Shown here: positions 16,267-28,136 of the stretch, one piece after another | How the letters are laid out: each line of letters starts with the position of its first letter | How positions within the stretch are numbered: the first letter of the stretch is position 1 | Assembly: GCA_963718875.1 (NCBI GenBank) | Contig: OY970378.1 | Span: 669,373-733,372, forward strand | Direction: 5' to 3' | DNA length: 64,000 nucleotides | Source: Candidatus Parcubacteria bacterium | GTDB lineage: Bacteria; Patescibacteriota; Saccharimonadia; UBA4664; JBIOIQ01 | Notes under the pieces: generated by a model | The model's input: only the letters and a program-made list of their open reading frames with translations | Database searches by the model: none | What the model was told of the DNA's origin: nothing | Program-made: the position numbers and the translations under genes

Positions 16267-16392
16267 AAAATAATCCTAGCAAGCAGCTGGTTTCCCTTAT
16301 CGGGACCTGTCTACTTCCCAGTCGTTTATCTTAGATATTTTACGTGGCTACTCAAGGAAGAGTATCAAAGATTGGCTTGAGTGTCAATCAGC

Positions 16393-17289
16393 TTGTAATA
16401 AGGTTCATTACACTAAAGCGGAACAAGCTACAATCTAACTAGGACTAACCAGTTAGAAAAGGAGACTTGTTCCAATGACCACATTAGCAGATCTACCGGT
16501 AACAGACCAAGAATGTTTTAACCAAGTGCTAGTACATCTTTATCCCGAGGGCCCTATTTGCCCTTGGATGTCCCACTCAAACATCCACATAACTACTCAG
16601 TATCTTTGGTGCGGCACCTGTCGTCGTAAATGGAGCTTAAAGAAACAAGTCGGCTTTGGGTCGTCTAAGCTCGGCTGGAGGAGGATTCTGGAACTGGTGA
16701 CTTGCTGGAGCGGTAAGCAGTCACCTGGCGACATTATCACCTCAACGGGGCTGTCCTACTGGACGATCCAACGCTGGTTAGAACGCTTGCGATCTAGACT
16801 ACCAGTCGACAAGAGCCAGTTAGTCGGGCTACTGGAGATAGACCAGAGCTATCTAGGTCGGCAGAAATATGGTAACCAACACATTGTTATGGGTATCGTG
16901 GACCGGGAAACCAACCTCGTAAGACTAGCTGAGATACTAGATTGTGAGCAGGATAGCATAGAAGGTTTTCTCGATCAGTATGCCACTCTCGGTAGCCTGA
17001 TCTTTGCTGATGCTCACGCCTCTCACCTTGGCCTAATGGAAGTTGGCTATGGTCTGGAGATCTGCAACCATTCCATTGGCCACTTTGGACCAACCAACCG
17101 CATTGAAGGGATCTGGAGCTGCCTGGATCGGTTTACCAGACGTACCCGCGACCGCTTCATGCATCAGTTCTTACCGGGATTACTCAGAGAGTTCCAGGCT
17201 AGAAAGAACCACCCAGAGTTGTTCAGTAGCCCATTTATATTACTTAAAAGTATGTCTGTTCCGTTTTAGTGGACAGAACCTTGTAATAA
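16393..17289 (+). mobile_element. IS1595-family insertion sequence (~879 bp, 16402-17280) with ~24-bp imperfect terminal IRs and flanking 9-10 bp direct repeat (C)TTGTAATAA
   Basis: IRL GGTTCATTACACTAAAGCGGAACA versus reverse complement of IRR GGTTCTGTCCACTAAAACGGAACA (19/24 match); direct repeats at 16393-16401 and 17281-17289; single transposase ORF fills the element. Confidence 0.7.
16475..17269 (+). CDS. IS1595-family (ISXO2-like) DDE transposase
   Basis: N-terminal C-x2-C...C-x2-C zinc ribbon, LLEIDQSYLGRQKYG...IVMGIVDR and TNRIEGIWSCLDRF motifs characteristic of IS1595/ISXO2 transposases. Confidence 0.75.
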   Translation: MTTLADLPVTDQECFNQVLVHLYPEGPICPWMSHSNIHITTQYLWCGTCRRKWSLKKQVGFGSSKLGWRRILELVTCWSGKQSPGDIITSTGLSYWTIQRWLERLRSRLPVDKSQLVGLLEIDQSYLGRQKYGNQHIVMGIVDRETNLVRLAEILDCEQDSIEGFLDQYATLGSLIFADAHASHLGLMEVGYGLEICNHSIGHFGPTNRIEGIWSCLDRFTRRTRDRFMHQFLPGLLREFQARKNHPELFSSPFILLKSMSVPF

Positions 17290-17673
17290 TGAATATTTGC
17301 GAATCAGGGATAAAAGGTGGTTTGCGGCTCAGCGGATCTATTAACCAATTTTCGAATGAGTTGAAGGTTGTAAGGCAATAAATGAAGAAAATGTTGTTGA
17401 CTTTGTGTCAATTATAATGTATATTAGCTAATTAATTTTAGTGAGCGAGAAATGCGCAATGTTTACCATAATTCCCATATATATTTTGCCACCTGTGTAG
17501 GGCTGTATTTAACCAACTATGCTATTTATATTTACTTACCTAGCGAGCTAACTCAACTTCGGACAATAATGTCTACAGTCATGCTCGTACTTCTACTGCT
17601 GTCGATGGTAGCTGCCCTAGGTTTTATTTTTAAGCCTGCTGGTAAACTGCAAACTACGACCGAAAAAGGTTCG

Positions 17674-18030
17674 TTAACTCGTGGCAAAGTTAAAGAAAAC
17701 ACCAAGACCCGCAAACGCTAATAGTGCTGCAATAAGCAGTATGGCGTATTCGATTTTGCGATCAATCTGAAAATGGTCATGACTGCTAAAAATTAGGCCT
17801 AAGATGAGCCCTATGGGCAAAACTACTCGGCCATTAACCTTGATCCAAATGCTACCAAGGATGAAATACATTAATATTTTTAAGAAATAAACACTGCCGG
17901 ACTCTTGAGCTTGTTTTTTGTGTGCCATGGCATAATTTAAGCATAATCGCTTTAACGGTGCAAGCTCTTTGGGAATTTGCGAATTATGAACCCGAGAATC
18001 AGGAATTGTGGGCTGCAGTCGTCTCTTCAT
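17674..18030 (-). CDS. Hypothetical small membrane protein (2-3 TM helices)
   Basis: 118-aa ORF directly downstream of the NUDIX gene on the same strand; hydrophobic segments; no recognisable motif. Confidence 0.35.
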   Translation of the reverse strand: MKRRLQPTIPDSRVHNSQIPKELAPLKRLCLNYAMAHKKQAQESGSVYFLKILMYFILGSIWIKVNGRVVLPIGLILGLIFSSHDHFQIDRKIEYAILLIAALLAFAGLGVFFNFATS

Positions 18031-18107
18031 TTATTGCCTGAGCTAGTCGAAGGCTCAAGTGCGCAATTGCCCTTTGACAGACTAAGATGATGTAACGAGG
18101 CACAGCT

Positions 18108-18575
18108 TTAGATTATGCCCGCGTTTCTTGCGGCCTCAAGGTCGCGCATGGTTTGCGAATGGAGGGGCGAGGGCAGGCTTTCAAGGGTAAACCAGCCTAT
18201 ATCCTCAATTTTATGGGGATAGCCATTTTTAACTCGGGTTGGATCAACCTTGACGGCGTAAGAAAAAGCAATCCAATGAGTAGGCTTGTTGTTTAAAGTC
18301 CTGGTTACTTCGTACCAATCCAGAAATGTCATGTCTTGGCTTTCTGCAGACAGCTCTTCCTTGACCTCTCGTCTGATAGCATCGGGTATGCTTTCGTTAA
18401 ACTCAACTACTCCACCACCATTATCCCACACTCCCTGCTCGTCCCGACAGTTTTGACTACGCTTATGAAGCACGAATTTTCCTTTGCCGTCATGGACAAC
18501 AAAACAAGCAGCAACACCAACATAATCTACGCCCGGTCTTAGATCCTGGCGCTTATACTCTTTAGAATCAGTCAT
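18108..18575 (-). CDS. NUDIX hydrolase
   Basis: Nudix box GGVVEFNESIPDAIRREVKEELS (G-x5-E-x7-REVxEE); 8-nt overlap with upstream rarA. Confidence 0.8.
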   Translation of the reverse strand: MTDSKEYKRQDLRPGVDYVGVAACFVVHDGKGKFVLHKRSQNCRDEQGVWDNGGGVVEFNESIPDAIRREVKEELSAESQDMTFLDWYEVTRTLNNKPTHWIAFSYAVKVDPTRVKNGYPHKIEDIGWFTLESLPSPLHSQTMRDLEAARNAGII

Positions 18576-19779
18576 TTTTAGCTTCCTGTGGTCGGTAAAA
18601 GATTACCCCATCTAGTCCTTCAGGCATAAAACCCTTGGGATGCTCAAATCCCGGCTTCCATTTATAATCCTGCCCGTATTGAAGCTTTTTCATCAGTGAG
18701 GTTGGCGCATTGCGCAGATGCAGCGGCGGTTCGGCTGTTGGGTTATCCGCTACAGCCTGTGTAGCATTATTTATAGCATCATAGGCGGCTCTAGACTTGG
18801 GGCTAGTGGCCATTGCAATGGTGGTGTGACTCAAATTAATGCGGCATTCAGGCATTCCAATTCGCTCCACAGCTAAAAACGTTGATACAGCAAGGTTAAG
18901 CGCATCGGAATTAGCCATACCAACATCTTCGGAAGCAAAGATTACCATTCGCCGAGCAATAAACTTGGGGTCTTCGCCGGCTTCAAGCATTCTGGCAAGG
19001 TAAAATAAGGCAGCATTTACTGCTCCACCGCGCAAAGATTTAATATATGCAGAGATGAGGTTGTAGTGAAATTCTCCTCCCTTATCGTAGCGCAAACTGG
19101 TGGACTGCATGGCCTGTTTTATAACCGGTGTTGTAATGGTTGAAGCAAGACTTGCGGCTACTTCAAGACCGCCCAAAGCCATGCGGGCATCTCCTGCCGC
19201 TAACTCAGATAACAAGGCTTTTGCATCAGTTTCAATGGTTTTTCCTGGTAGCTCAGACATTGCCCTGTCAATAATAATCTGTAGCTGGCTAGGCGAAAGT
19301 GGCTCAAGCACGACTACTCGACTACGCGATAAAAGTGGCCCTATGACCTCGAATGAAGGGTTTTCGGTGGTGGCGCCGATCAAAATAATTGTGCCGTTTT
19401 CAACATGAGGCAAGAAGGCATCTTGTTGGGCTTTGTTAAACCGGTGTATTTCGTCTATAAAAAGAACGGTTTTTTGACCCATCTTGGTTCGCTCACTAGC
19501 TTGCTGGATAAGTTTTTTTACCTCAGGAAGGCCGGCGGCAACCGCTGATATCTCTTCAAAGGCAGCCTGGCTTGAGGCGGCAACTATTCGAGCTAGAGTA
19601 GTTTTGCCTGTCCCAGGGGGGCCCCAGAGTATCAATGACGTTGGCTGCCCAGCTTCAACAAGTTTGCGTATAAATTGGTTGTCACCTAAGACATGTTCCT
19701 GGCCAACAACTTCTTTTAAGTCTCGAGGTCGTATCCTATCCGCCAAAGGCTTTTGATTATTGGATTCAAATAGGTTCAT
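18568..19779 (-). CDS. rarA: Replication-associated recombination protein A (RarA/MgsA AAA+ ATPase)
   Basis: Walker A GPPGTGKTTLARIVA, Walker B VLFIDEIHRFNKAQQD, sensor and C-terminal MgsA domains. Confidence 0.9.
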   Translation of the reverse strand: MNLFESNNQKPLADRIRPRDLKEVVGQEHVLGDNQFIRKLVEAGQPTSLILWGPPGTGKTTLARIVAASSQAAFEEISAVAAGLPEVKKLIQQASERTKMGQKTVLFIDEIHRFNKAQQDAFLPHVENGTIILIGATTENPSFEVIGPLLSRSRVVVLEPLSPSQLQIIIDRAMSELPGKTIETDAKALLSELAAGDARMALGGLEVAASLASTITTPVIKQAMQSTSLRYDKGGEFHYNLISAYIKSLRGGAVNAALFYLARMLEAGEDPKFIARRMVIFASEDVGMANSDALNLAVSTFLAVERIGMPECRINLSHTTIAMATSPKSRAAYDAINNATQAVADNPTAEPPLHLRNAPTSLMKKLQYGQDYKWKPGFEHPKGFMPEGLDGVIFYRPQEAKND

Positions 19780-19931
19780 ATTGCTTCTATAATACCGAAA
19801 TCAAACCGAAGCTACTAATTTGCCAAATTACTCAGCCCTGCTGGACGATGGATAAGCTCAATTATAGCTTCTTTTTAAGCGAGTGTGGCTTTGGTCAATG
19901 ACCTAAGATTTTAACCTTGCGCGGTTTATCG

Positions 19932-20390
19932 CTACTTGTAATAGCTTCGTATCTGGAAAAGAATAAACAAGCTTAGGAGCGCACTTATGAGAGCATTCAA
20001 GATATGTCCGCTCAAGAGTCCCACCGCTAAGGACACTACAACACCGTAGAAAGTAAGCATCCAGCCTTGTTTGGTACGAGCCAACAAGCCGGGTATGGCC
20101 GCAGCGAACAAGCCAACCTGAACTAAGGTAACGATCCACACCAAGCCTATACCAGTGGCGACTGCTGGTGAAGCAACACCAATAACTGGTAGTGCGACGG
20201 TACTTATGCCCAATGCAAGCAACAACAAAGGCAGAGCTAAGAGAAGTAGAACTAGATCTATCCAGGGACCGTATTTTACAATCCATTTTTTAGCGTTTTC
20301 TGGAAGCTGTACTGGAGACTTTGTTACCAAATAGTATTCTAGCATTCCCATTACATCTTTTGGAGGAGTGTCCGAACTTGGTCGAGCCAT
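19932..20390 (-). CDS. Hypothetical polytopic membrane protein
   Basis: 152 aa with 3-4 hydrophobic helices, no recognisable catalytic motif; lies between the rarA upstream region and the IS481 left end. Confidence 0.45.
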   Translation of the reverse strand: MARPSSDTPPKDVMGMLEYYLVTKSPVQLPENAKKWIVKYGPWIDLVLLLLALPLLLLALGISTVALPVIGVASPAVATGIGLVWIVTLVQVGLFAAAIPGLLARTKQGWMLTFYGVVVSLAVGLLSGHILNALISALLSLFILFQIRSYYK

Positions 20391-20451
20391 TTTAATAAAT
20401 CCTTCATTAATACTTCCATCATAAGCAATTTGAGCTGAAAATTCAATTTAG

Positions 20452-21519
20452 TGTGGTGGTTCATAACATGAGCGCCACTTTTTCTCGTTCTAGTTTCTCG
20501 GCATATTCCTTTGGCGTCAAGTATCCGAGAGCTTCGTGTGGCCTGTAGTCGTGGTATTTCACTAGCCAAGTGTCGATGATGTCTTGTTGGTCGGCTAGAT
20601 CAATTGCTAGGCCGCCCCACTGGATACATTCCCGCTCCAAGGTACCAATGAAACGCTCAACATGGGGCTTGTCTTTGGGAGTGTAGGGACGGGCAAAGTA
20701 CTGCGTAACGTCCATCTCCTTTAAGAGTTTGGCAAACTTTCCTAAATTCTCAGAGCCGTTGTCGTTTAAGGCAGCGGTCGGGACTAGTCCCCAGAGCTCA
20801 CAAACCTTGGTCCAGGCAACGGCAGCTTGCTGAGATGAAATACTGCTAGCCACATGGACGAAAGCTCGTTTACCCACGACATCAATGGCCACAAACCCAT
20901 AGCGTTTAACCCCCAGCATGGGCAAGTGCTTAACATCCACCTCGACTAAGTCGCCAGGCTCTGCTGCCACCAGATCTTTCGGTTTACGACGGCGGTTGAC
21001 TCTGTCAGGGTGCCCTTGGGTTTAATTGGCGGGGTGATAAACAAGTTGTAGCGCTTGATGATCCGGCCAATAGTTGAGGCGGATAAAACTACTTCATGGT
21101 CACGCTGCAGAATAGTTGCTAGTTTGTACTTAGAGTATTCTGGGTTGGCTTTGCGCAAAGAGCAAACGAGATCTATGTGAGCTAAGGGGGTTGTGGGCTT
21201 ACGGACTTGCCTGGGACGTTGAGACAAGTTCTCCAGCCCTTTTAGTCCCTGTTGGTGAAACCTTTGGTAGTAGCGGTAGAAACTGCGATGATGGATGCCA
21301 AAATGGCGACAGGTTAGACGGGCATTGCGGCCATGGGAGTGGTAATAGTCTACCCATTTAAGCCGTTGTTTAGCTTCTTTGGATAACTCTACTGGATCAC
21401 GAACTTTTCCTAACCCTGGAACAATTACGCCAATAGATGTTTGGTGGCCTGTTCGACCCTTCATAACTGCCTCCTCTAGATTATTCTAGAGTGGCGCTCA
21501 TGTATGTGAACCTGGACAT
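20452..21519 (-). mobile_element. IS481-family insertion sequence (~1.07 kb) with TGT-initiated imperfect terminal IRs and possible 5-6 bp TSD (A)TTTAG
   Basis: Left end TGTGGTGGTTCATAACATGAGCGCCACT versus reverse complement of right end TGTCCAGGTTCACATACATGAGCGCCACT; TTTAG at 20447-20451 and 21520-21524. Confidence 0.6.
20461..21464 (-). pseudogene. IS481-family transposase split into two overlapping frames (N-terminal HTH part 20946-21464; rve/DDE integrase core 20461-20970)
   Basis: The upstream ORF ends ...IWWQQSLAT and the downstream ORF continues ...EPGDLVEVDVKHLP (first catalytic D region) in another frame; rve motifs YFARPYTPKDKPHVERF present; a frameshift near 20946-20970 is needed to join them. 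Confidence 0.65.
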
Positions 21520-21587
21520 TTAGCCTTGTAAAAAGGTTTTTTTTAGAGTTTTCTTCAAGAAATATTGGCAAAAGTAAGCATAAGGAC

Positions 21588-21616
21588 TTGACAATATAGT
21601 GCTTATGGTGTAGAAT
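21588..21616 (+). promoter_or_regulatory. Near-consensus sigma70 promoter TTGACA-17-TAGAAT
   Basis: -35 at 21588-21593, -10 at 21611-21616, 17-nt spacer; lies ~70 bp outside the IS481 right end, upstream of the Rpf-like gene. Confidence 0.5.
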
Positions 21617-21637
21617 ACCTTCTTATGTTCAGATGAG

Positions 21638-21661
21638 GGCCTGATTACAGGTCTTTTTTTT
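21638..21661 (+). terminator. Intrinsic-terminator-like hairpin (GGCCTG-ATTA-CAGGTC plus T8) about 15 nt after the predicted TSS; candidate attenuator
   Basis: 6-bp stem (one GU) followed by 8 T; between the promoter and the 21765 start codon. Confidence 0.4.
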
Positions 21662-21764
21662 CTGGACATAATATCTCATTCATTCGGGGTGAGGTGGAGT
21701 TATATCACATAACGAAAGGTACACTAAGCATCGGCTGGCGCATTATCTTGCGTAACCGATACAT

Positions 21765-22380
21765 ATGCGTAACTTTACTAAGTTAGTAATGGCTTCGGCT
21801 ATGCTAGCTACTCAGGCGACACCTACTGCTCCTTATGTAGACGCCGCTTCAGTTAGGGCTTCAGTCCCTACTGTAGTTTCTTCAGAAAGTATGATTCATT
21901 TTTCAACCGCTTCAGTATATGCGGTTGAACTTGAAACTAAACCACAACCAGACTTTGATAGCGAAGTTTTAGTGCCTTTGCGGAAAGCTCAAGCTGATGC
22001 AGCTCAAAAAGCCGCTGAAGCTAAAGCTGCTCAAGCAGCAGCTCAAAAGGTTGCTCAAGCAGCCACTGCCAGCACGAACAGTTACCACTACGACCAAAAG
22101 CTTTGCGTATAATGGCCAAGTTTTAAGTGAGGCTGCTATACAATTCTTAGGTAATTGCGAGAGTGGCATGACGGCCAACCGTAATTCAGGAAACGGTTTT
22201 TACGGTGCCTTCCAGTTTACCATTAGCACTTGGAATTCAATGCAAACTGGCTATGCGCGAGCTGACTTAGCTCCCTTAGATGTCCAGATTCAAGCTGTCC
22301 ATAAGCTGCTTTCAAAATCTTCGATTTACACTCAGTTCCCCGCTTGTGCTCGAAAAATGCAAGCTGCTGGTCTGATTTAA
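21765..22380 (+). pseudogene. Secreted Rpf-like (resuscitation-promoting-factor-type) transglycosylase, frameshifted
   Basis: Signal peptide plus Ala/Gln-rich linker in frame 1 (21765-22112), and NCESGMTANRNSGNGFYGAFQFTISTWNS...FPACARKMQAAGL transglycosylase-like domain in frame 2 (21997-22380); one indel near 22060-22090 would join them. Confidence 0.6.
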
Positions 22381-22388
22381 CTAAAAGC

Positions 22389-22418
22389 AAAAACCGCTTT
22401 TAAAAGGGCGGTTTTTGC
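22389..22418. terminator. Bidirectional intrinsic terminator (AAACCGC...GCGGTTT with flanking A/T runs)
   Basis: Hairpin directly after the Rpf-like stop. Confidence 0.45.
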
Positions 22419-22473
22419 GTGTAAAAAGTAACCTTTAGTTGTCGAGTCTCGATGGTTTTTCTCGAATGTCTAT

Positions 22474-23010
22474 TTATAAGGTCGTGTCGGCGATATTGGT
22501 ACCACCATGTACGCCATCTCCCCGAAGATCTAGATCCGTTGGATTACTTGCAGGGGTTGTTGGGTCGACCATCGGCGGCATTTCTGGATTTGTCTCGATA
22601 GGGTCGGTAGCAGGGTTATGAGATGGAATTTCTATTTCCTTAATGCTTAACTGCGAAGCCAAAGTTATTTGAGAGTCCTGTAGTGCTCGAGCTGTAGCAA
22701 GGGTAGATAATGCGGGGTTTACGGGCTTATAAACAATGCGGGGTTTAATAGTAGTACTGCGATATTGGGGAGCTTGCGTGCTTAGCTGAGAGGGATTTGT
22801 TGGCTGAGAAAGTGAGCTTTGAGGGGTGATGATTTGAGTTTTAGGCTTTGGAGCAACTCGAGGTTTATTAGCTACTGGTTTCTGCCCAGGAAGTCTGAAA
22901 AAGGCTAAGCTAATAGTAGCCCCTAGTAATAAAACAATTGTAAGCGCAGCAAAAGTTTTTACTCCGTTTTGAACAGATTGTTTTTGACTTAATTGCTTCA
23001 TAAACTCCAT
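22474..23010 (-). CDS. Hypothetical N-terminally membrane-anchored Pro/Thr/Ser-rich protein
   Basis: 178 aa, one TM helix near the N-terminus, then a low-complexity P/T/Q-rich region. Confidence 0.5.
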   Translation of the reverse strand: MEFMKQLSQKQSVQNGVKTFAALTIVLLLGATISLAFFRLPGQKPVANKPRVAPKPKTQIITPQSSLSQPTNPSQLSTQAPQYRSTTIKPRIVYKPVNPALSTLATARALQDSQITLASQLSIKEIEIPSHNPATDPIETNPEMPPMVDPTTPASNPTDLDLRGDGVHGGTNIADTTL

Positions 23011-23091
23011 GTTGTGGTTGGCTCACTGACTTTAAGTAGGAGCCTATTTTAGTTTGTTTTGGTCAAAATTACAATATTTTTGATGGATTAT

Positions 23092-24594
23092 TTAAGGCTT
23101 GTGATTACTCACTAGATCTTGGTTCGACGATATACTTTGCAAGAATTGATAAATTTTTACCATAGCTAGAGTGTCTTGTCCGCAGTAGGTTATGAGGTCT
23201 GAGTAGACCTTTTGGTTTTCTTCGGTCGTTAAATGCCCTTTGGCGCTATTTGTCCACCGAATTTGAGCAGTTGCTCCTTCGTGAATCTCTAAGTCGGCGT
23301 AGCTCATTTCTGGCACAAGAATTGGTAAGACGTTCTTTATGGATACGCTACCGCCAAAATTGGGGTCTACATACCAAAAGTTACTAAATACTTCCATTAA
23401 ATCCACAACTCGGTCGTTAACTGAAGCTAAAAAACTTGCATATTCAGGTTGTAGCCTTGACATGGTGTTGTTGCAGCTCATTTCAAACAGTTTAAACCAA
23501 ACCAATACGCTTCCGCTTAGTCCAAGATCTCTCTCTAGCCGCAAGAGAAGTTGCGGTATAGGATTGTCGCTTCCGCGGCTCAAGAATTCCTTGTGGCGCA
23601 CTTCCCCACCCGGCATATCAATAATATGGAGAGAATATTGGAATGGAAGCTGTTGGTATGGTCTTTGCTTATCCCATAGTGGAATGGCAAGATTATAGGT
23701 TTCGTAATCAAGAAAATATAGTGGATATTGAAGCTGGCTTAACCACTCAGCAATTTTTACTCGATGCGTTGCTGGTCGGTCTAACCGTAGAGCTTCAATG
23801 TATGCGCGTTGTTCTCGTGATAGTTTGGACGACAGAGAAATTTGACTTGATTTTGTAATCCCCGACTGGCTCCATGAGCGCAGCTGATCGGGCTTAAGCC
23901 GCTTCAGCCTGAAAATGCTATCTGGTTCCAGGCTGGGGTGAAGATGCCGATATGTCGGTAACCAAGCACCTAAGTTGGTTGCCTTAATGGGGTGCAAATC
24001 TGGACATTGGCTAAGGTTGAGCACACCAATAGCCTCAATAATTTTGCTTTTAGTAGAGTCAAGGATGGAGTCGACCCGGTCGGTAACGTTAACTGTTTTG
24101 AAAAGGTGACGTGGATTTATAGCACCGTCTTTCGTGAATCGGGTATTTATGTGTACAACAAAGGTCTGGCCTATTTTGTAACCATAGTCTGTAAAGGCGA
24201 CTTTTTGAAAACTTAGGTCGTTTAGGTGGTCAAACCGGACTTTGGTTGCGGCTTTAATTTCGTAAATGTCCCAATGCAAGCCGTTTTTTACCAAAACGTC
24301 AGCCCGCGCATATAAATTGCGACTAGTTAAGACGGACGCCTGGAAGAGGGTGGTCGAACCGTTGCTTATAATCCAGTTAGTGTCAGTAACGGCCTCTTTA
24401 AGAACCGTTTCTATCATTATCCCATCAGGAAAAAGACTGCGGGCAAGTGCCTCCACCTCGTTCCCTTGGTTTACGTGGTAGTGTCCTGATTCATCGAACG
24501 GCGGCAGTTTGTCTTTGTCGTATTTTGAAAGCCAAAGGTAGGCCGGATGAATTAGGAACTTTAGGTAGTCAGACTTGGTTAGCCATTTAGCCAT
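23092..24594 (-). CDS. Two-nuclease-domain protein: N-terminal PD-(D/E)xK nuclease, C-terminal DEDDy-like 3'-5' exonuclease domain (DUF2779-like)
   Basis: ARADVLVKNGLHWDIYEIKAATKV (D...EIK motif) in the N-terminal half; YFLDYETYN (Exo I-like DxE) and YCGQD (Exo III-like YxxxD) in the C-terminal half. Confidence 0.55.
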   Translation of the reverse strand: MAKWLTKSDYLKFLIHPAYLWLSKYDKDKLPPFDESGHYHVNQGNEVEALARSLFPDGIMIETVLKEAVTDTNWIISNGSTTLFQASVLTSRNLYARADVLVKNGLHWDIYEIKAATKVRFDHLNDLSFQKVAFTDYGYKIGQTFVVHINTRFTKDGAINPRHLFKTVNVTDRVDSILDSTKSKIIEAIGVLNLSQCPDLHPIKATNLGAWLPTYRHLHPSLEPDSIFRLKRLKPDQLRSWSQSGITKSSQISLSSKLSREQRAYIEALRLDRPATHRVKIAEWLSQLQYPLYFLDYETYNLAIPLWDKQRPYQQLPFQYSLHIIDMPGGEVRHKEFLSRGSDNPIPQLLLRLERDLGLSGSVLVWFKLFEMSCNNTMSRLQPEYASFLASVNDRVVDLMEVFSNFWYVDPNFGGSVSIKNVLPILVPEMSYADLEIHEGATAQIRWTNSAKGHLTTEENQKVYSDLITYCGQDTLAMVKIYQFLQSISSNQDLVSNHKP

Positions 24595-24624
24595 ACTTAA
24601 TATTGTAACAAAAGCTGTTACTTG

Positions 24625-25395
24625 CTATTTGAATCGTGACGCTGACTCAATTAAGGCTTGGCGGGATTTGCGATAGCTTTTTAGGCCTAAAAACATGGCC
24701 GGAATGGCAACACTTGCTATCAGAGGTGCCTCTGAGCCAGTTTTAGGGGTTGTGGCGGGTTTTGGAATAGGTGTTGTCGCAGGAGTAGGCGGTGGAACAG
24801 AGATAGGCGCCGGCGCGGGGGTGGCTTTTGTCATCGGGGCTGGCGTAGGTTTTGGTACCGGAGTGGGAGCAGGTACTGGAGTCGGCGTCGGACTTGTCAT
24901 TGCAGTAGTGGCTACCACGGGACGTGCCGTTACAGGATTACCGCAAGATTTGATAACGGCCCACATGAACTGGTTGTTCTGCATGTATACGTAAGCGGGG
25001 AGACTGTCGCTGACAAAGGATACGGACGTAGGGCGAATCCAAACGTTAGCCATTGCAGTTGATCCTTCCATGAACTGACGCCCGACAGATTGGGCATTTG
25101 TTGCAACAACACGGTTATTTAGCAGTAGCACATTCCCGGCTTTTGTTACAGTTCCTTCAACTGTTGAGCTAATAAGATTAGGGTCAATTCCGCTAGCAGC
25201 GTAAATACTTGAAATGTCAGCTGAGCTATTGTGTCCATCTCCTTGGGTCGCAGCTTTGACTACATCTGACGGATACGTTGCTCCACACCAAATAACGGCA
25301 TTATCATCGCAATCTTGGGCAGCTTGAGTTGACAATGGATTCGCAATAGCTATGGCTACGAGCACAATGATTGGTAGTAACTTTTGCTTATTCAT
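24625..25395 (-). CDS. Secreted surface protein with Pro/Thr linker and C-terminal sortase-type sorting signal (TPKTG plus TM helix plus basic tail)
   Basis: N-terminal signal peptide; PTPTPVPAPTPVPKPTPAP linker; C-terminus TTPKTGSEAPLIASVAIPAMFLGLKSYRKSRQ. Confidence 0.55.
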   Translation of the reverse strand: MNKQKLLPIIVLVAIAIANPLSTQAAQDCDDNAVIWCGATYPSDVVKAATQGDGHNSSADISSIYAASGIDPNLISSTVEGTVTKAGNVLLLNNRVVATNAQSVGRQFMEGSTAMANVWIRPTSVSFVSDSLPAYVYMQNNQFMWAVIKSCGNPVTARPVVATTAMTSPTPTPVPAPTPVPKPTPAPMTKATPAPAPISVPPPTPATTPIPKPATTPKTGSEAPLIASVAIPAMFLGLKSYRKSRQALIESASRFK

Positions 25396-25602
25396 AGATT
25401 AGATCCTTTTATGAGTAACAACATCGAATTCTATCATGGCAGAGAAGCCAACAGATTGACTTGTTGAAAGTCACACAAAACAAGCCTAGTTATTAAAACT
25501 TCATTGGAATAACAACCATCATCTTAATACTCGTTTGATTTTTAGCTGGACTTTACTTTTGGCTACTTTAAGGTCAGAATGTAAGCATAATAAGGATTTA
25601 CA

Positions 25603-26373
25603 ATGTCTGAAAATTCTGTGCTGGGCCAGCCCCAAAAAGACCGTCTCAGTATATCATTTGGCTACAAGTTCATATCCCTGACATTGCTCGCAGTGATCGC
25701 TATTATGCTTCTGGTTTGGAAGCCCTGGGTTTCAACCGCCAATGCAGACGATCGTACTATTTCGGTTACAGGCAAAGCCGATATCAAAGCCGAGCCGGAC
25801 GAATATGTCTTTAATCCTAGTTATCAGTTTAAGAACATTGATAAGGCAGCTGCTCTTAAGAACCTCACCGCTAAAAGCAGCGAACTGATAGCAAAATTAA
25901 AGGGTATGGGCGTTGAAGACCGGAATATAAAAACAGATTCTAACGGATATGACTATCAACGCTACTACTATAATAACGACACAAAAGAATCGACTTACAC
26001 CTTAGTTTTGACTGTGACGCTTGCAAACCGCGATAAAGCTCAGAAAGTCCAAGACTATCTTGTAACAACTGACCCTACGGGGAGCATATCGCCCAATGTA
26101 ACTTTTAGCGATAGTAAACGTAAGGCGCTTGAAAGCCAGGCTCGAGACCTCGCTACAAAAGAAGCACGCTCAAAAGCTGAGCAGTCGGCTAAAAATCTTG
26201 GATTTAAGGTTGGGGCAGTTAAGGCGGTCCAGGACGGCTCTGGTTTCGGCAATATATATCCAATGCAGGGCAGGGCCAGCTTAGAGACATCGTCAGAGGA
26301 TGCAAAGTTAGATGTGCAACCCGGTCAAAATGACCTCAGCTATACCGTAAACGTTGTTTATTTTGTTAAATAA
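25603..26373 (+). CDS. SIMPL (DUF541) domain protein, YggE/BP26-like periplasmic/extracytoplasmic protein
   Basis: N-terminal TM/signal anchor, then RTISVTGKADIKAEPDEYVF and downstream SIMPL-like pattern; AAGGA Shine-Dalgarno 7 nt before the ATG. Confidence 0.65.
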   Translation: MSENSVLGQPQKDRLSISFGYKFISLTLLAVIAIMLLVWKPWVSTANADDRTISVTGKADIKAEPDEYVFNPSYQFKNIDKAAALKNLTAKSSELIAKLKGMGVEDRNIKTDSNGYDYQRYYYNNDTKESTYTLVLTVTLANRDKAQKVQDYLVTTDPTGSISPNVTFSDSKRKALESQARDLATKEARSKAEQSAKNLGFKVGAVKAVQDGSGFGNIYPMQGRASLETSSEDAKLDVQPGQNDLSYTVNVVYFVK

Positions 26374-26663
26374 TATTTTAAGCATAACTAGGTTGACTCA
26401 AACTAGTGTATTGTGATTAACTTGACTTACCAACTTAAGTTTTGTGGAGTTGGATGTTTATAACGGCCGCTAAGGTTCGTTATGGTACCTATCTAGAGAG
26501 GACTGCTCATAAACTGTTTAAACAATAGACGCGAAACGTCTAGAGTGATTTCAGTAAGAGTGATACGAGCGCCTAGGCTAATCCATCCTGAAGTGTGATT
26601 GTGGAAAATTACGCTAAAATCATGATACTAGCTATTTGGATGTGTCTTCAAAAGAGCAACTGC

Positions 26664-26694
26664 ACCTCTGACTTCCAATCGGAGGTGTTTTTGT
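26664..26694 (+). terminator. Intrinsic terminator (CACCTC-13 nt-GAGGTG plus TTTTTGTG) in non-coding DNA
   Basis: 6-bp GC-containing stem followed by a T-run; no convincing CDS upstream on the plus strand. Confidence 0.4.
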
Positions 26695-27017
26695 GTTAAT
26701 TTGCTTTAACCAACAACTTAATTCATAATTTTGGTGTCCGGTTCTCCAGCAGAAAGGTGCTTTAAGGTGTCACTGCAGTTGTTCCTGATCCTGACAGCGT
26801 TGCTAGGATGGTTTCTTCCGGCAATGTTACTCAATCTGCTCCTACGCCAGGTTAGAAGGCTATATCCAAGAAGCCGAGTCGCGATCATTTCTCGTGACTG
26901 GCTGTACAGTTGGAAATGGTTCCTGTGCTGGTGGATCACCGTATTGTGCATCATTTTCCGAGTCGAAGATAAGCCAGCCTTCGCTTCGTCGACTACGTCG
27001 CCAACGGCGGAATCGTA

Positions 27018-27084
27018 ACACCCCTAAGTAGTAATTTATCGCCAACGGGCGATATCCGCTTTTCTCAGGGGTGTCGTCTTTTTA
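27018..27084 (+). terminator. Two-level hairpin (ACACCCCTAAG...CTCAGGGGTGT with an inner ATCGCC/GGCGAT hairpin) followed by a T-run
   Basis: 10/11-bp outer stem, 6-bp inner stem, then CGTCTTTTTA; abuts the 3' end of the minus-strand CYTH gene. Confidence 0.4.
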
Positions 27085-27089
27085 TAAAG

Positions 27090-27662
27090 CTACCGTTTTT
27101 CCTGCTGATCAAATTTAAGTATTTTGTAATCAAGCATATTAATCCCTGAGGCTTCATAGATCTGAAAGGCTGAGCAAATCTTCTTGTCCGCTTGACTTAG
27201 GCTGAGTTTTTCGATCATTTTGTCAATATCTGCCCAGCTGGTAGCTTCAATCTCAAGATAGGGTGGGATCAAAGGCATCTCATCAATGTCGAGCTCTACC
27301 CCATCTAGTTCATAACGCGTGCGCTTTTTTTCTTCCAGGAACTTTTCGACCAGTCCAATACGGCGTAGGATCTCGGAGGTGGCTTCAAAGTCGCTAACTT
27401 TTACTTCATGTTCAAGCATTGAGCTATCATTTGCGCCGGCTTTAACTCCTTGGCGCTGTTTGTATGCCAGCTTGGTCTCGTTACCATCGCTACGTAAGCG
27501 CACCCAGGCAGCTTGCTCATTAAGGCGTAAGTCGGGGAAATCAAAGGTGGTGATGCGATACTTTGTTTCGAATAGCTTTTTCCCACCCAGTTCGATAATT
27601 TGATTCTTAAGGTGGTCCCGATTGATATTGAGGAATTTAACTTCTATTTCTTCCATGCACAT
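27090..27662 (-). CDS. CYTH-domain protein (triphosphate tunnel metalloenzyme / class IV adenylate cyclase-ThTPase family)
   Basis: N-terminal EIEVKFL signature and overall ~190-aa CYTH pattern of alternating acidic/basic beta strands. Confidence 0.7.
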   Translation of the reverse strand: MCMEEIEVKFLNINRDHLKNQIIELGGKKLFETKYRITTFDFPDLRLNEQAAWVRLRSDGNETKLAYKQRQGVKAGANDSSMLEHEVKVSDFEATSEILRRIGLVEKFLEEKKRTRYELDGVELDIDEMPLIPPYLEIEATSWADIDKMIEKLSLSQADKKICSAFQIYEASGINMLDYKILKFDQQEKR

Positions 27663-27757
27663 TCTATCCAGTTAGGTCCCTTGACTCGTATAACTCGCTC
27701 GGGATGACAGATAAGTGAAGTTCTGCGGGATACGTTGTGCAGAATTTTACTTCTTTG

Positions 27758-27793
27758 TCACATCTTAATTTCGATGTCGACGCCAGCTCGGGG
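27758..27793 (-). other. Diverged partial copy of the rpsJ 3' end (encodes [11 protein letters not shown] plus stop), located immediately 3' of the real rpsJ stop
   Basis: 26/34 nt identical to the authentic rpsJ terminus at 27808-27841; differences are mostly synonymous third-position changes. Confidence 0.55.
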
Positions 27794-27805
27794 TTTTCGC
27801 GTAGC

Positions 27806-28136
27806 TACATCTTGATTTCAATGTCAACACCGGCAGGGAGATTGAGGTTCATGAGTGCATCGATCGTCTTGGGAGTTGGTTCGGTAATATCGATGAGACG
27901 TTTATGGGTGCGCATTTCAAATTGTTCTCGGCTGTCTTTATGAACGAATGTGCCTCGGATAACAGTAAAGCCTTTTTTTCGGTTGGAAGTGGAATTGGAC
28001 CAGCTACTAGTGCGCCTGTTCGTATGGCAGTATCAAGAATCTGCTTGGCAGACTGATCGATAACCTTAGAATCATAGGCTTTAAGGCGAATGCGGATTCG
28101 TTGTTTAACGGCTTCTTTTTCGGGTTTTTCTGGCAT
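27806..28136 (-). CDS. rpsJ: 30S ribosomal protein S10, reading frame interrupted at an A7 homopolymer (plus-strand T-run 27973-27979)
   Basis: Frame 1 gives [55 protein letters not shown]; with one extra A the downstream frame reads [56 protein letters not shown], a canonical S10 C-terminus. Confidence 0.85.

Follow-up and report, generated by a model that had tools for sequence, protein, structure and literature searches.

What is a stand-alone protein with two nuclease active sites, and no motor of its own, doing in the middle of a bacterial ribosomal-gene region? The question arises from a stretch of 64,000 nucleotides (nt), hereafter the window, at positions 669,373 to 733,372 of contig OY970378.1 from Candidatus Parcubacteria bacterium (assembly GCA_963718875.1; Saccharimonadia), whose minus strand carries a complete gene of the DUF2779 family. 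It starts with ATG and, according to the list of open reading frames (ORFs) of the window, encodes a protein of 500 amino acids (aa), hereafter the window protein; an identical record (P0001), derived from a 1.19 Mb contig, is held by NCBI and ENA. The original prediction saw in it a fusion of a PD-(D/E)xK nuclease with a DEDDy-type 3'-5' exonuclease-like domain, resembling DUF2779 and lying in an accessory region rich in insertion sequences (ISs), and proposed a single-gene defence nuclease or one that processes DNA taken up by the cell. Our results bear out the architecture and the family, not the accessory setting. We hold with moderate confidence that the gene is vertically inherited and encodes a cytoplasmic, helicase-less, two-headed and metal-dependent nuclease for the processing of chromosomal DNA ends.

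Two nuclease domains in one protein

The resemblance to DUF2779 proved to be full membership of the family. PF11074 aligns over its whole model (positions 1-126) with residues 293-418 of the window protein at 125.4 bits, against a gathering cutoff of 23.3, and it is the only Pfam family found in the protein at E<=1, with no match to PF13482 (RNase_H_2). A word-indexed search returned more than 2,370 homologues covering 96-99% of the query, and an exhaustive profile search gathered 12,097 clusters at 50% identity, 4,207 of them at E<=1e-30. These profile matches span positions ~2-490 of proteins of ~490-500 aa, the two-domain layout thus being the norm, and many close homologues in Saccharimonadia and other Patescibacteria bear the name 'DUF2779 domain-containing protein'. 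The signal is far beyond chance, and the motifs appear, from their conservation, to be of functional-site quality. All of the family-invariant catalytic residues (D99, E112, K114, Q130, D296, E298, E371, D398, Y470 and D474) are present in the window protein (Table 1).

An AlphaFold2 model of the whole protein, computed from an alignment of 35 sequences, reached a mean pLDDT of 95.0 and a pTM of 0.89. Sequence searches of PDB chains, with the single protein and with a 35-sequence profile as queries, returned nothing at E<=10; solved nucleases are therefore linked to both domains by structure comparison only. For the N-terminal head, Foldseek searches of the PDB gave matches at probability 1.0 to Cas4 (8d3l_I at E=1e-4, 7mi4, 4r5q and 4ic1), to MGME1 (5zyv and related entries) and to human EXO5 (7lw8). 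Conservation was counted in 329 full-length family members drawn from three independent searches, where D99, E112 and Q130 are each kept in 327 and K114 in 328, and where E48, the upstream RecB-type motif, is Glu or Asp in 294. The iron-sulphur (Fe-S) cysteines are kept in about half of the family and have all been lost in the clade of the window protein, which has only three cysteines (197, 374 and 471) and no pattern of an N-terminal Cys followed by CxC...C; the first of the Fe-S cysteines, present in 52% of the 329 sequences, is replaced in the window protein by His16. Some other family members match the Pfam family Cas_Cas4 (PF01930).

The C-terminal half, modelled alone with a pLDDT of 94.5, falls in the fold of the DEDD exonucleases, so that the check proposed with the original prediction, in which a non-nuclease fold would have been the refuting outcome, came out in favour of a nuclease. 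Its top match in the PDB is the DnaQ domain of Streptococcus thermophilus Cas2-DnaQ (8h2f/8h18; probability 1.0, TM-score 0.46-0.56), and further matches are ERI2 (7n8v), 3'hExo (1zbu) and RNase T (3nh2). D296, E298, E371 and D398 are found in all 329 sequences, and Y470 and D474 each in 328. The motifs originally quoted for both halves are thus all present and at conserved positions, and Foldseek and the alignment of 329 sequences agree on a PD-(D/E)xK plus DEDDy architecture. The heads are joined by a linker with helices at 208-218, 235-243, 260-271 and 278-286 in the model and with the family consensus 'NLxRLxxxQLxxLxxxGIxxxxDIP'; its stretch SIFRLKRLKPDQLRSWSQSGITKSSQIS (L..L...QL..L...GI....DIP) possibly resembles a helix-hairpin-helix.

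The polypeptide unites two nuclease active sites, each strongly conserved and apparently complete, and has no ATPase domain. The sequence has no signal peptide and no membrane segment, and the protein is therefore not an extracellular or membrane nuclease.

The fusion of a Cas4-like with a DEDDy domain was already known, and the window protein is an ordinary member of its family. According to Majorek et al. (2014), DUF2779 is family F.17 of the 3'-5' exonuclease clade in the RNase H-like superfamily and co-occurs with the Cas4-like DUF83 domain, families F.13 and F.17 both combining an exonuclease with a DUF83/Cas4-like domain. A 2026 study of MMSYN1_0389, a quasi-essential gene of JCVI-syn3.0, likewise describes a fusion of Cas4-like and DEDD domains, with the same catalytic residues, a tyrosine replacing the DEDDh histidine and a partial loss of the Fe-S cysteines. 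The accessible parts of the literature mentioning DUF2779 report no biochemical assay of any member.

Genomic contexts and the role of the protein

The window covers the rpoB-rpoC, rpsL-rpsG-fusA-tuf and S10-spc ribosomal region, as determined by Pfam scans. The DUF2779 gene lies there in a non-ribosomal block that contains genes for CYTH and SIMPL proteins, a surface protein, DUF2779, a Pro-rich membrane protein, an Rpf-like transglycosylase, an rve-type IS, a membrane protein, MgsA/RarA, a NUDIX protein and an IS1595 transposase. Synteny with two relatives (L083 and L084) was established by tblastn together with called genes. A relative whose DUF2779 protein is 68% identical has the same order tuf-rpsJ-CYTH-SIMPL-surface protein-DUF2779, and a relative at 54% identity retains rpsJ-...-DUF2779-...-membrane protein-MgsA-...-rplC-rplD, with no IS elements. 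No repeats of at least 60 nt occur in the window, each IS is single-copy, and both transposase genes are absent from the syntenic L084 and are therefore recent insertions into a conserved block. The DUF2779 gene has a guanine-cytosine (GC) content of 0.442, against 0.453 for the window. The description of the surroundings as an IS-rich accessory region is not supported by these observations. Recent horizontal acquisition of the gene by way of the flanking ISs was also considered, and it is rejected on account of the IS-free syntenic relatives, the lack of repeats and the unremarkable GC content. A scan for promoters and terminators around the gene found fewer sites than in shuffled controls and is uninformative on operon structure.

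To see the gene beyond this one locus, contexts were surveyed at 79 loci of species-representative genomes. DUF2779 has no obligate partner; the 149 immediate neighbours that were counted match 145 different Pfam families. Several contexts are of the housekeeping kind: the order rpoC-dnaG-rpoD-DUF2779 is found in 6-7 loci, several of them in genomes named Paceibacteria; three members of the window clade (L085, L090 and L091; P0009, P0029 and P0057) share the block der-pth-dprA-dus-DUF2779-topA; and rmuC, recO and an AddA-like gene lie close to the gene in another relative. Others belong with defence. Genes for a SIR2_2-domain protein and HerA (DUF87) stand directly upstream of DUF2779 and co-oriented with it, with an overlap or a gap of less than 50 nt, at L006:4878-9506 and L017:5098-9470, and at L009:13-2986 a HerA-type gene, cut by the contig end and assigned by BLAST clustering with the HerA of the former two, is also upstream. 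SIR2-HerA is a two-gene anti-phage system in one classification paper, and the nuclease may be the third gene of an undescribed variant or may merely share an island with it. Eco57I-like, type ISP or Eco57I+ResIII restriction-modification genes adjoin DUF2779 at L001, L002, L005, L017, L089 and L092, some family members are fused to restriction-associated (REase-like) domains, and serine recombinases occur in several loci.

Five defence or mobile markers flagged at least 14 of the 79 loci and three housekeeping markers 10 of 79, with no overlap. It would be tempting to explain this by separate defence and housekeeping paralogs. Such subfamilies are rejected on the strength of a neighbour-joining tree in which the flagged loci are interleaved, a rough tree built from BLOSUM distances and carrying no support values. 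The window clade provides nine contexts, of which conserved housekeeping blocks make up six and restriction-modification or mobile neighbourhoods the other three. Seven neighbour matches to the PADLOC model 'mad8' were set aside as evidence of defence, as they are probably generic P-loop matches; in the window, mad8 aligns with nothing but the Walker-A segment of MgsA (residues 46-68). Neither the 50,697 phage records nor PHROGs yielded a homologue in sequence searches, and carriage on plasmids is rare (31 of 72,556). The survey of homologues thus returned mixed contexts, in which the proposed link to defence is absent at the window locus and clear in a minority of relatives, others being in housekeeping settings.

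Three of these contexts deserve a fuller description. Around dprA and topA, the longer order is der-pth-dprA-x-dus-[metK or two N6/N4 methyltransferases]-DUF2779-[purA]-topA-PBP-sigma factor-DUF8128/HerA-like ATPase. At L090, a probable restriction-modification module (two methyltransferases and an ORF of 350 aa) is inserted directly beside the DUF2779 gene. Arcobacter and Aliarcobacter plasmids, for example L081 (Aliarcobacter cryaerophilus pM830MA, 60-74 kb), carry sbcD-sbcC-ATPase-DUF2779-hypothetical-AAA-dGTPase, where the DUF2779 gene overlaps the end of a gene for an ATP-binding protein of 954 aa; the run from sbcD to the dGTPase gene is possibly a multi-gene DNA-end or defence module.

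Because the nearest relatives are Cas4/MGME1/EXO5 for the first head and MrfB/Cas2-DnaQ/ERI for the second, the activities can be proposed by analogy. The Cas4-like head would, like its structural relatives, thread and cleave single-stranded ends or flaps, mainly 5' ones, and the DEDDy head would use two-metal catalysis to take nucleotides off 3'-OH ends, with Y470 as a candidate general base. If both heads are active, they could jointly shorten or degrade the two strands wherever DNA presents a free end, an overhang or a flap; having no motor of its own, the protein would act on single-stranded tails or beside a separate helicase. Its most likely role would then be to process chromosomal ends during repair, recombination or replication in organisms with small genomes (Patescibacteria and Mollicutes, for example), and destruction of foreign linear DNA could be a secondary consequence, as with RecBCD, which serves both repair and immunity.

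We favour such a role in genome maintenance because of the conserved position, the quasi-essential homologue of syn3.0 and the company in which the Mycoplasma bovis homologue was found in a mutant screen. The position in the rpsJ-rplC block beside MgsA/RarA, kept down to 54% identity, supports it. So do the lack of phage homologues, the rarity on plasmids and the lack of a specific PADLOC match, as well as the dnaG-rpoD and dprA-topA blocks, the relative with rmuC, recO and an AddA-like gene, and the sbcD-sbcC genes of Arcobacter. As for the screen, the M. bovis DUF2779 transposon mutant was growth-deficient in cell co-culture, and dnaB, holA and recD mutants came from the same screen.

Several points weigh against this proposal. 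The survey found no conserved operon partner, any one neighbour family occurring in at most 9 of the 79 loci. The structural matches are distant, neither head exceeding a TM-score of 0.56 with a solved structure, and in Exo II the helix after strand 4 bears an invariant Glu (E371, in 'WxxxFE') where the canonical motif 'NxxxFD' has an Asp. Moreover, we infer the substrate (DNA or RNA), the polarity and the activity alike. Finally, since an AddA-like gene lies near one relative, DUF2779 is not established as a replacement of RecBCD.

The protein could instead be a dedicated anti-phage or anti-plasmid nuclease that destroys both strands of invading linear DNA, either by itself or in the service of neighbouring systems, as their effector or accessory. 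The minority of homologues beside restriction-modification and SIR2-HerA genes keeps alive this half of the original proposal; at the window locus it lacks support, as a conserved block between ribosomal protein genes, free of defence genes, houses the gene there and in the relatives at 68% and 54% identity. When the ten closest neighbours other than transposases were scanned with PADLOC, none had a specific match and the matches obtained were generic (P-loop or NUDIX); its best match for the DUF2779 protein was Cas4 at E=0.046. DUF2779 is not itself a PADLOC model. Pfam scans revealed no methyltransferase near the gene in the window, as the original prediction had remarked. The interleaving of defence- and housekeeping-flagged loci speaks against a defence subfamily, restriction-modification genes may be plentiful in Patescibacterial genomes generally, and the syn3.0 homologue is required for growth in phage-free rich medium, its authors stating that its role must lie 'beyond bacterial immunity'. 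We regard a dedicated defence function as unlikely. A nuclease of uptake or salvage, which would break down DNA that is imported or comes from the host into nucleotides, or trim incoming single strands, would suit organisms unable to make nucleotides de novo; Patescibacteria and Mollicutes are known to depend on scavenged nucleotides. The order der-pth-dprA-x-dus-DUF2779-topA in three window-clade members is suggestive too, DprA being a transformation protein. However, dprA is 2-3 genes off with an opposite-strand gene between, and dprA-topA may be a conserved pair that receives inserted genes, so that the adjacency may be incidental. In the M. bovis screen, the mutant fails only when it has to grow on host cells, and the nanoRNase NrnA and GdpP were also recovered. 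Against uptake stand the lack of any competence gene near DUF2779 in the window (Pfam scans) and of a signal peptide or membrane segment, and we consider it quite improbable.

The substrate might also be RNA, with a DEDDy head like RNase D or RNase T and a PD-(D/E)xK head that is a 5' RNA nuclease, together processing or degrading transcripts. Three RNases (ERI2, 3'hExo and RNase T) are indeed among the good DEDD fold matches, RNA maturation would explain essentiality in a minimal cell more readily than a DNA exonuclease does, and NrnA came from the same M. bovis screen. Nonetheless, the top matches of the N-terminal head are DNA nucleases, the best characterised C-terminal relative is the DNA-repair exonuclease MrfB, and the neighbours and fusion partners are DNA-related (restriction-modification, HerA, SbcCD, topA, dnaG, MgsA and REase-like domains). 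We give an RNA role very little weight.

Maintenance of the chromosome and service to defence need not exclude each other. We speculate that DUF2779 is a helicase-less counterpart of RecBCD/AddAB in small genomes, a single polypeptide that would attack the two strands of any free DNA end, both to maintain the chromosome and to clean up after, or be the effector of, restriction-modification and SIR2-HerA systems encoded beside it; this idea is doubtful at present. If true, the dual role would explain both the quasi-essentiality in a minimal cell and the recurrent adjacency or fusion to restriction-type modules. Two leads follow from our results: the Saccharimonadia gene is stably inherited on the chromosome, in the rpsJ-rplC and dprA-topA blocks, which argues for housekeeping, and, for a minority of homologues, tight linkage or fusion to SIR2-HerA and type IIG/ISP restriction modules is seen. 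Solving the function of DUF2779 would supply a role for one remaining unknown gene of the minimal cell.

The block around the gene

The features of the gene and of its surroundings are collected in Table 1. As had been predicted, the gene is flanked by genes for surface proteins. In the product of the upstream one, a signal peptide and a stalk rich in Pro and Thr precede a C-terminal 'PKTGS', a hydrophobic transmembrane stretch and a basic tail; judged by its sequence, this C-terminal end is a sortase-type sorting signal with a non-canonical motif. Pfam gives no match for this product, and L083 and L084 have homologues of it close to DUF2779. The gene on the other side encodes a membrane-anchored protein.

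Table 1. Coordinates, within the window, of the DUF2779 gene, its domains and residues, and neighbouring features
Feature	Position	Strand	Basis or remark
Complete DUF2779-family gene	23092..24594	minus	ORF list, 500 codons + stop; Pfam PF11074 E=2.2e-36
Cas4/MGME1/EXO5-like PD-(D/E)xK nuclease domain, ~aa 1-200	23995..24594	minus	Foldseek and residue conservation
His16 codon	24547-24549	minus	at first Fe-S cysteine position of ~half of family
E48 codon	24451-24453	minus	predicted catalytic
D99 codon	24298-24300	minus	predicted catalytic; in 'ADVLVKNG'
E112 codon	24259-24261	minus	predicted catalytic; in 'DIYEIKAATKV'
K114 codon	24253-24255	minus	predicted catalytic; in 'DIYEIKAATKV'
Q130 codon	24205-24207	minus	predicted catalytic
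Helical linker, ~aa 201-285	23740..23994	minus	model secondary structure
DnaQ-like DEDDy 3'-5' exonuclease domain, ~aa 286-490	23125..23739	minus	Pfam, model, Foldseek, conservation
Exo I D296	23707-23709	minus	in 'FLDYETYN'
Exo I E298	23701-23703	minus	in 'FLDYETYN'
Exo II position E371	23482-23484	minus	in 'WxxxFE'
Extra invariant acid D398	23401-23403	minus	follows strand 5
Exo III Y470	23185-23187	minus	in 'YCGQD'
Exo III D474	23173-23175	minus	in 'YCGQD'
Surface-protein gene, 30 nt upstream of DUF2779	24625-25395	minus	ORF list
Pro-rich membrane-anchored protein gene	22474-23010		ORF list
Non-ribosomal block between rpsJ (S10) and rplC (L3), ~11.5 kb	16267..27804	minus	Pfam scans, synteny with L083 and L084
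IS1595/ISXO2-like DDE transposase gene	16475-17269	plus	Pfam scan
HTH + rve integrase-core transposase gene, two overlapping ORFs	20461-21464	minus	Pfam scan

In this Saccharimonadia lineage, the usually contiguous rpsJ-rplC junction of the S10 operon is split by a conserved non-ribosomal block of ~8-11 kb, which is common to relatives with EF-Tu 92-96% identical. At its edge, rpsJ (27805-28136, minus strand) is frameshifted at an A-run (~27973-27979) that is one base short compared with two orthologues, reading GAAAA-AAAGG in the window and GAAAAGAAAGG in the orthologues. The ORF covers only the first 45 of 98 Pfam positions, and the C-terminal half continues in another frame up to the stop at 27805-27807. 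Since the gene is essential, the likeliest cause of the frameshift is a mistake in assembly or sequencing at the purine run; if so, caution is due with other apparent frameshifts in the assembly, such as the rve transposase in two ORFs. Just beyond, at ~27758-27787 on the minus strand, lies a second S10 3' end, comprising the last nine codons and the stop (GCTGGCGTCGACATCGAAATTAAGATGTGA, AGVDIEIKM*) in synonymously diverged form. This duplicate begins ~17 nt past the S10 stop, where the orthologues carry a terminator-like hairpin, and looks like the scar of a past rearrangement.

Comparison with known systems

Each head taken by itself has well-known counterparts. The N-terminal head shares with CRISPR-associated Cas4 (PF01930) the RecB-type D...ExK plus Q motif and the fold, whereas the four-cysteine Fe-S cluster of Cas4 has no counterpart in the window protein, which scores no PF01930 match at E<=1 and reaches the PADLOC Cas4 model only at the E-value given above. 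Nor are cas genes among the annotated neighbours, and the 64 kb window holds no short direct-repeat (CRISPR-like) array. From the Cas4/MGME1/EXO5 and RecB-AddB-Dna2-type end nucleases the head differs in being fused to a second nuclease, and its TM-scores with them are only 0.4-0.5. The C-terminal head has in common with the DEDD exonucleases of the DnaQ superfamily the RNase H-like exonuclease fold, the DxE of Exo I and the YxxxD of Exo III, and differs in Glu371 ('WxxxFE' versus 'NxxxFD') and in the extra invariant Asp398, either of which may be the metal ligand; Majorek et al. place DUF2779 and its DEDD relatives of the DnaQ superfamily in a clade with a reversed C-terminal helix. MrfB/YprB (PF13482), of which MrfB is a DEDDh exonuclease of DNA repair and, in the literature, the best HHpred match, has a His where the window protein has Tyr.

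As two-headed proteins, those of COG2251/PF13482 (F.13), which join Cas4-like and YprB-type domains, match the model over its whole length (E=1e-13 to 1e-17, TMq 0.59-0.68). They have an exonuclease domain of a different Pfam family, are 594-892 aa long, often with extra or AAA domains, and are 9-14% identical to the window protein. Among the predicted structures of BFVD, the Nucleocytoviricota proteins E3T4R0 (CroV), A0A3G4ZWN9, A0A5K0U8I2 and A0A3G5AGZ9, which carry at best the annotation 'YprB RNase H-like domain', also match the two-headed model from end to end, within the same ranges of E and TMq; the Cas4-like plus DEDD layout therefore also exists in Nucleocytoviricota.

Within DUF2779, the UU173 branch of Mycoplasma and Ureaplasma (NCBIfam NF045869), with proteins of ~650 aa, is a subfamily separate from the window protein, which scores 48.4 bits against its model, compared with a cutoff of 225, the C-terminal part alone aligning. 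MMSYN1_0389 retains two Fe-S cysteines where the window clade has none. Thus, the window presents no new kind of system, and its protein belongs to a large family (~12,000 clusters) with two apparently active, almost perfectly conserved nuclease sites: with DUF2779 (F.17), which includes MMSYN1_0389 and Mbov_0804 of M. bovis, it shares the Pfam domain, the length, the domain order and the catalytic residues.

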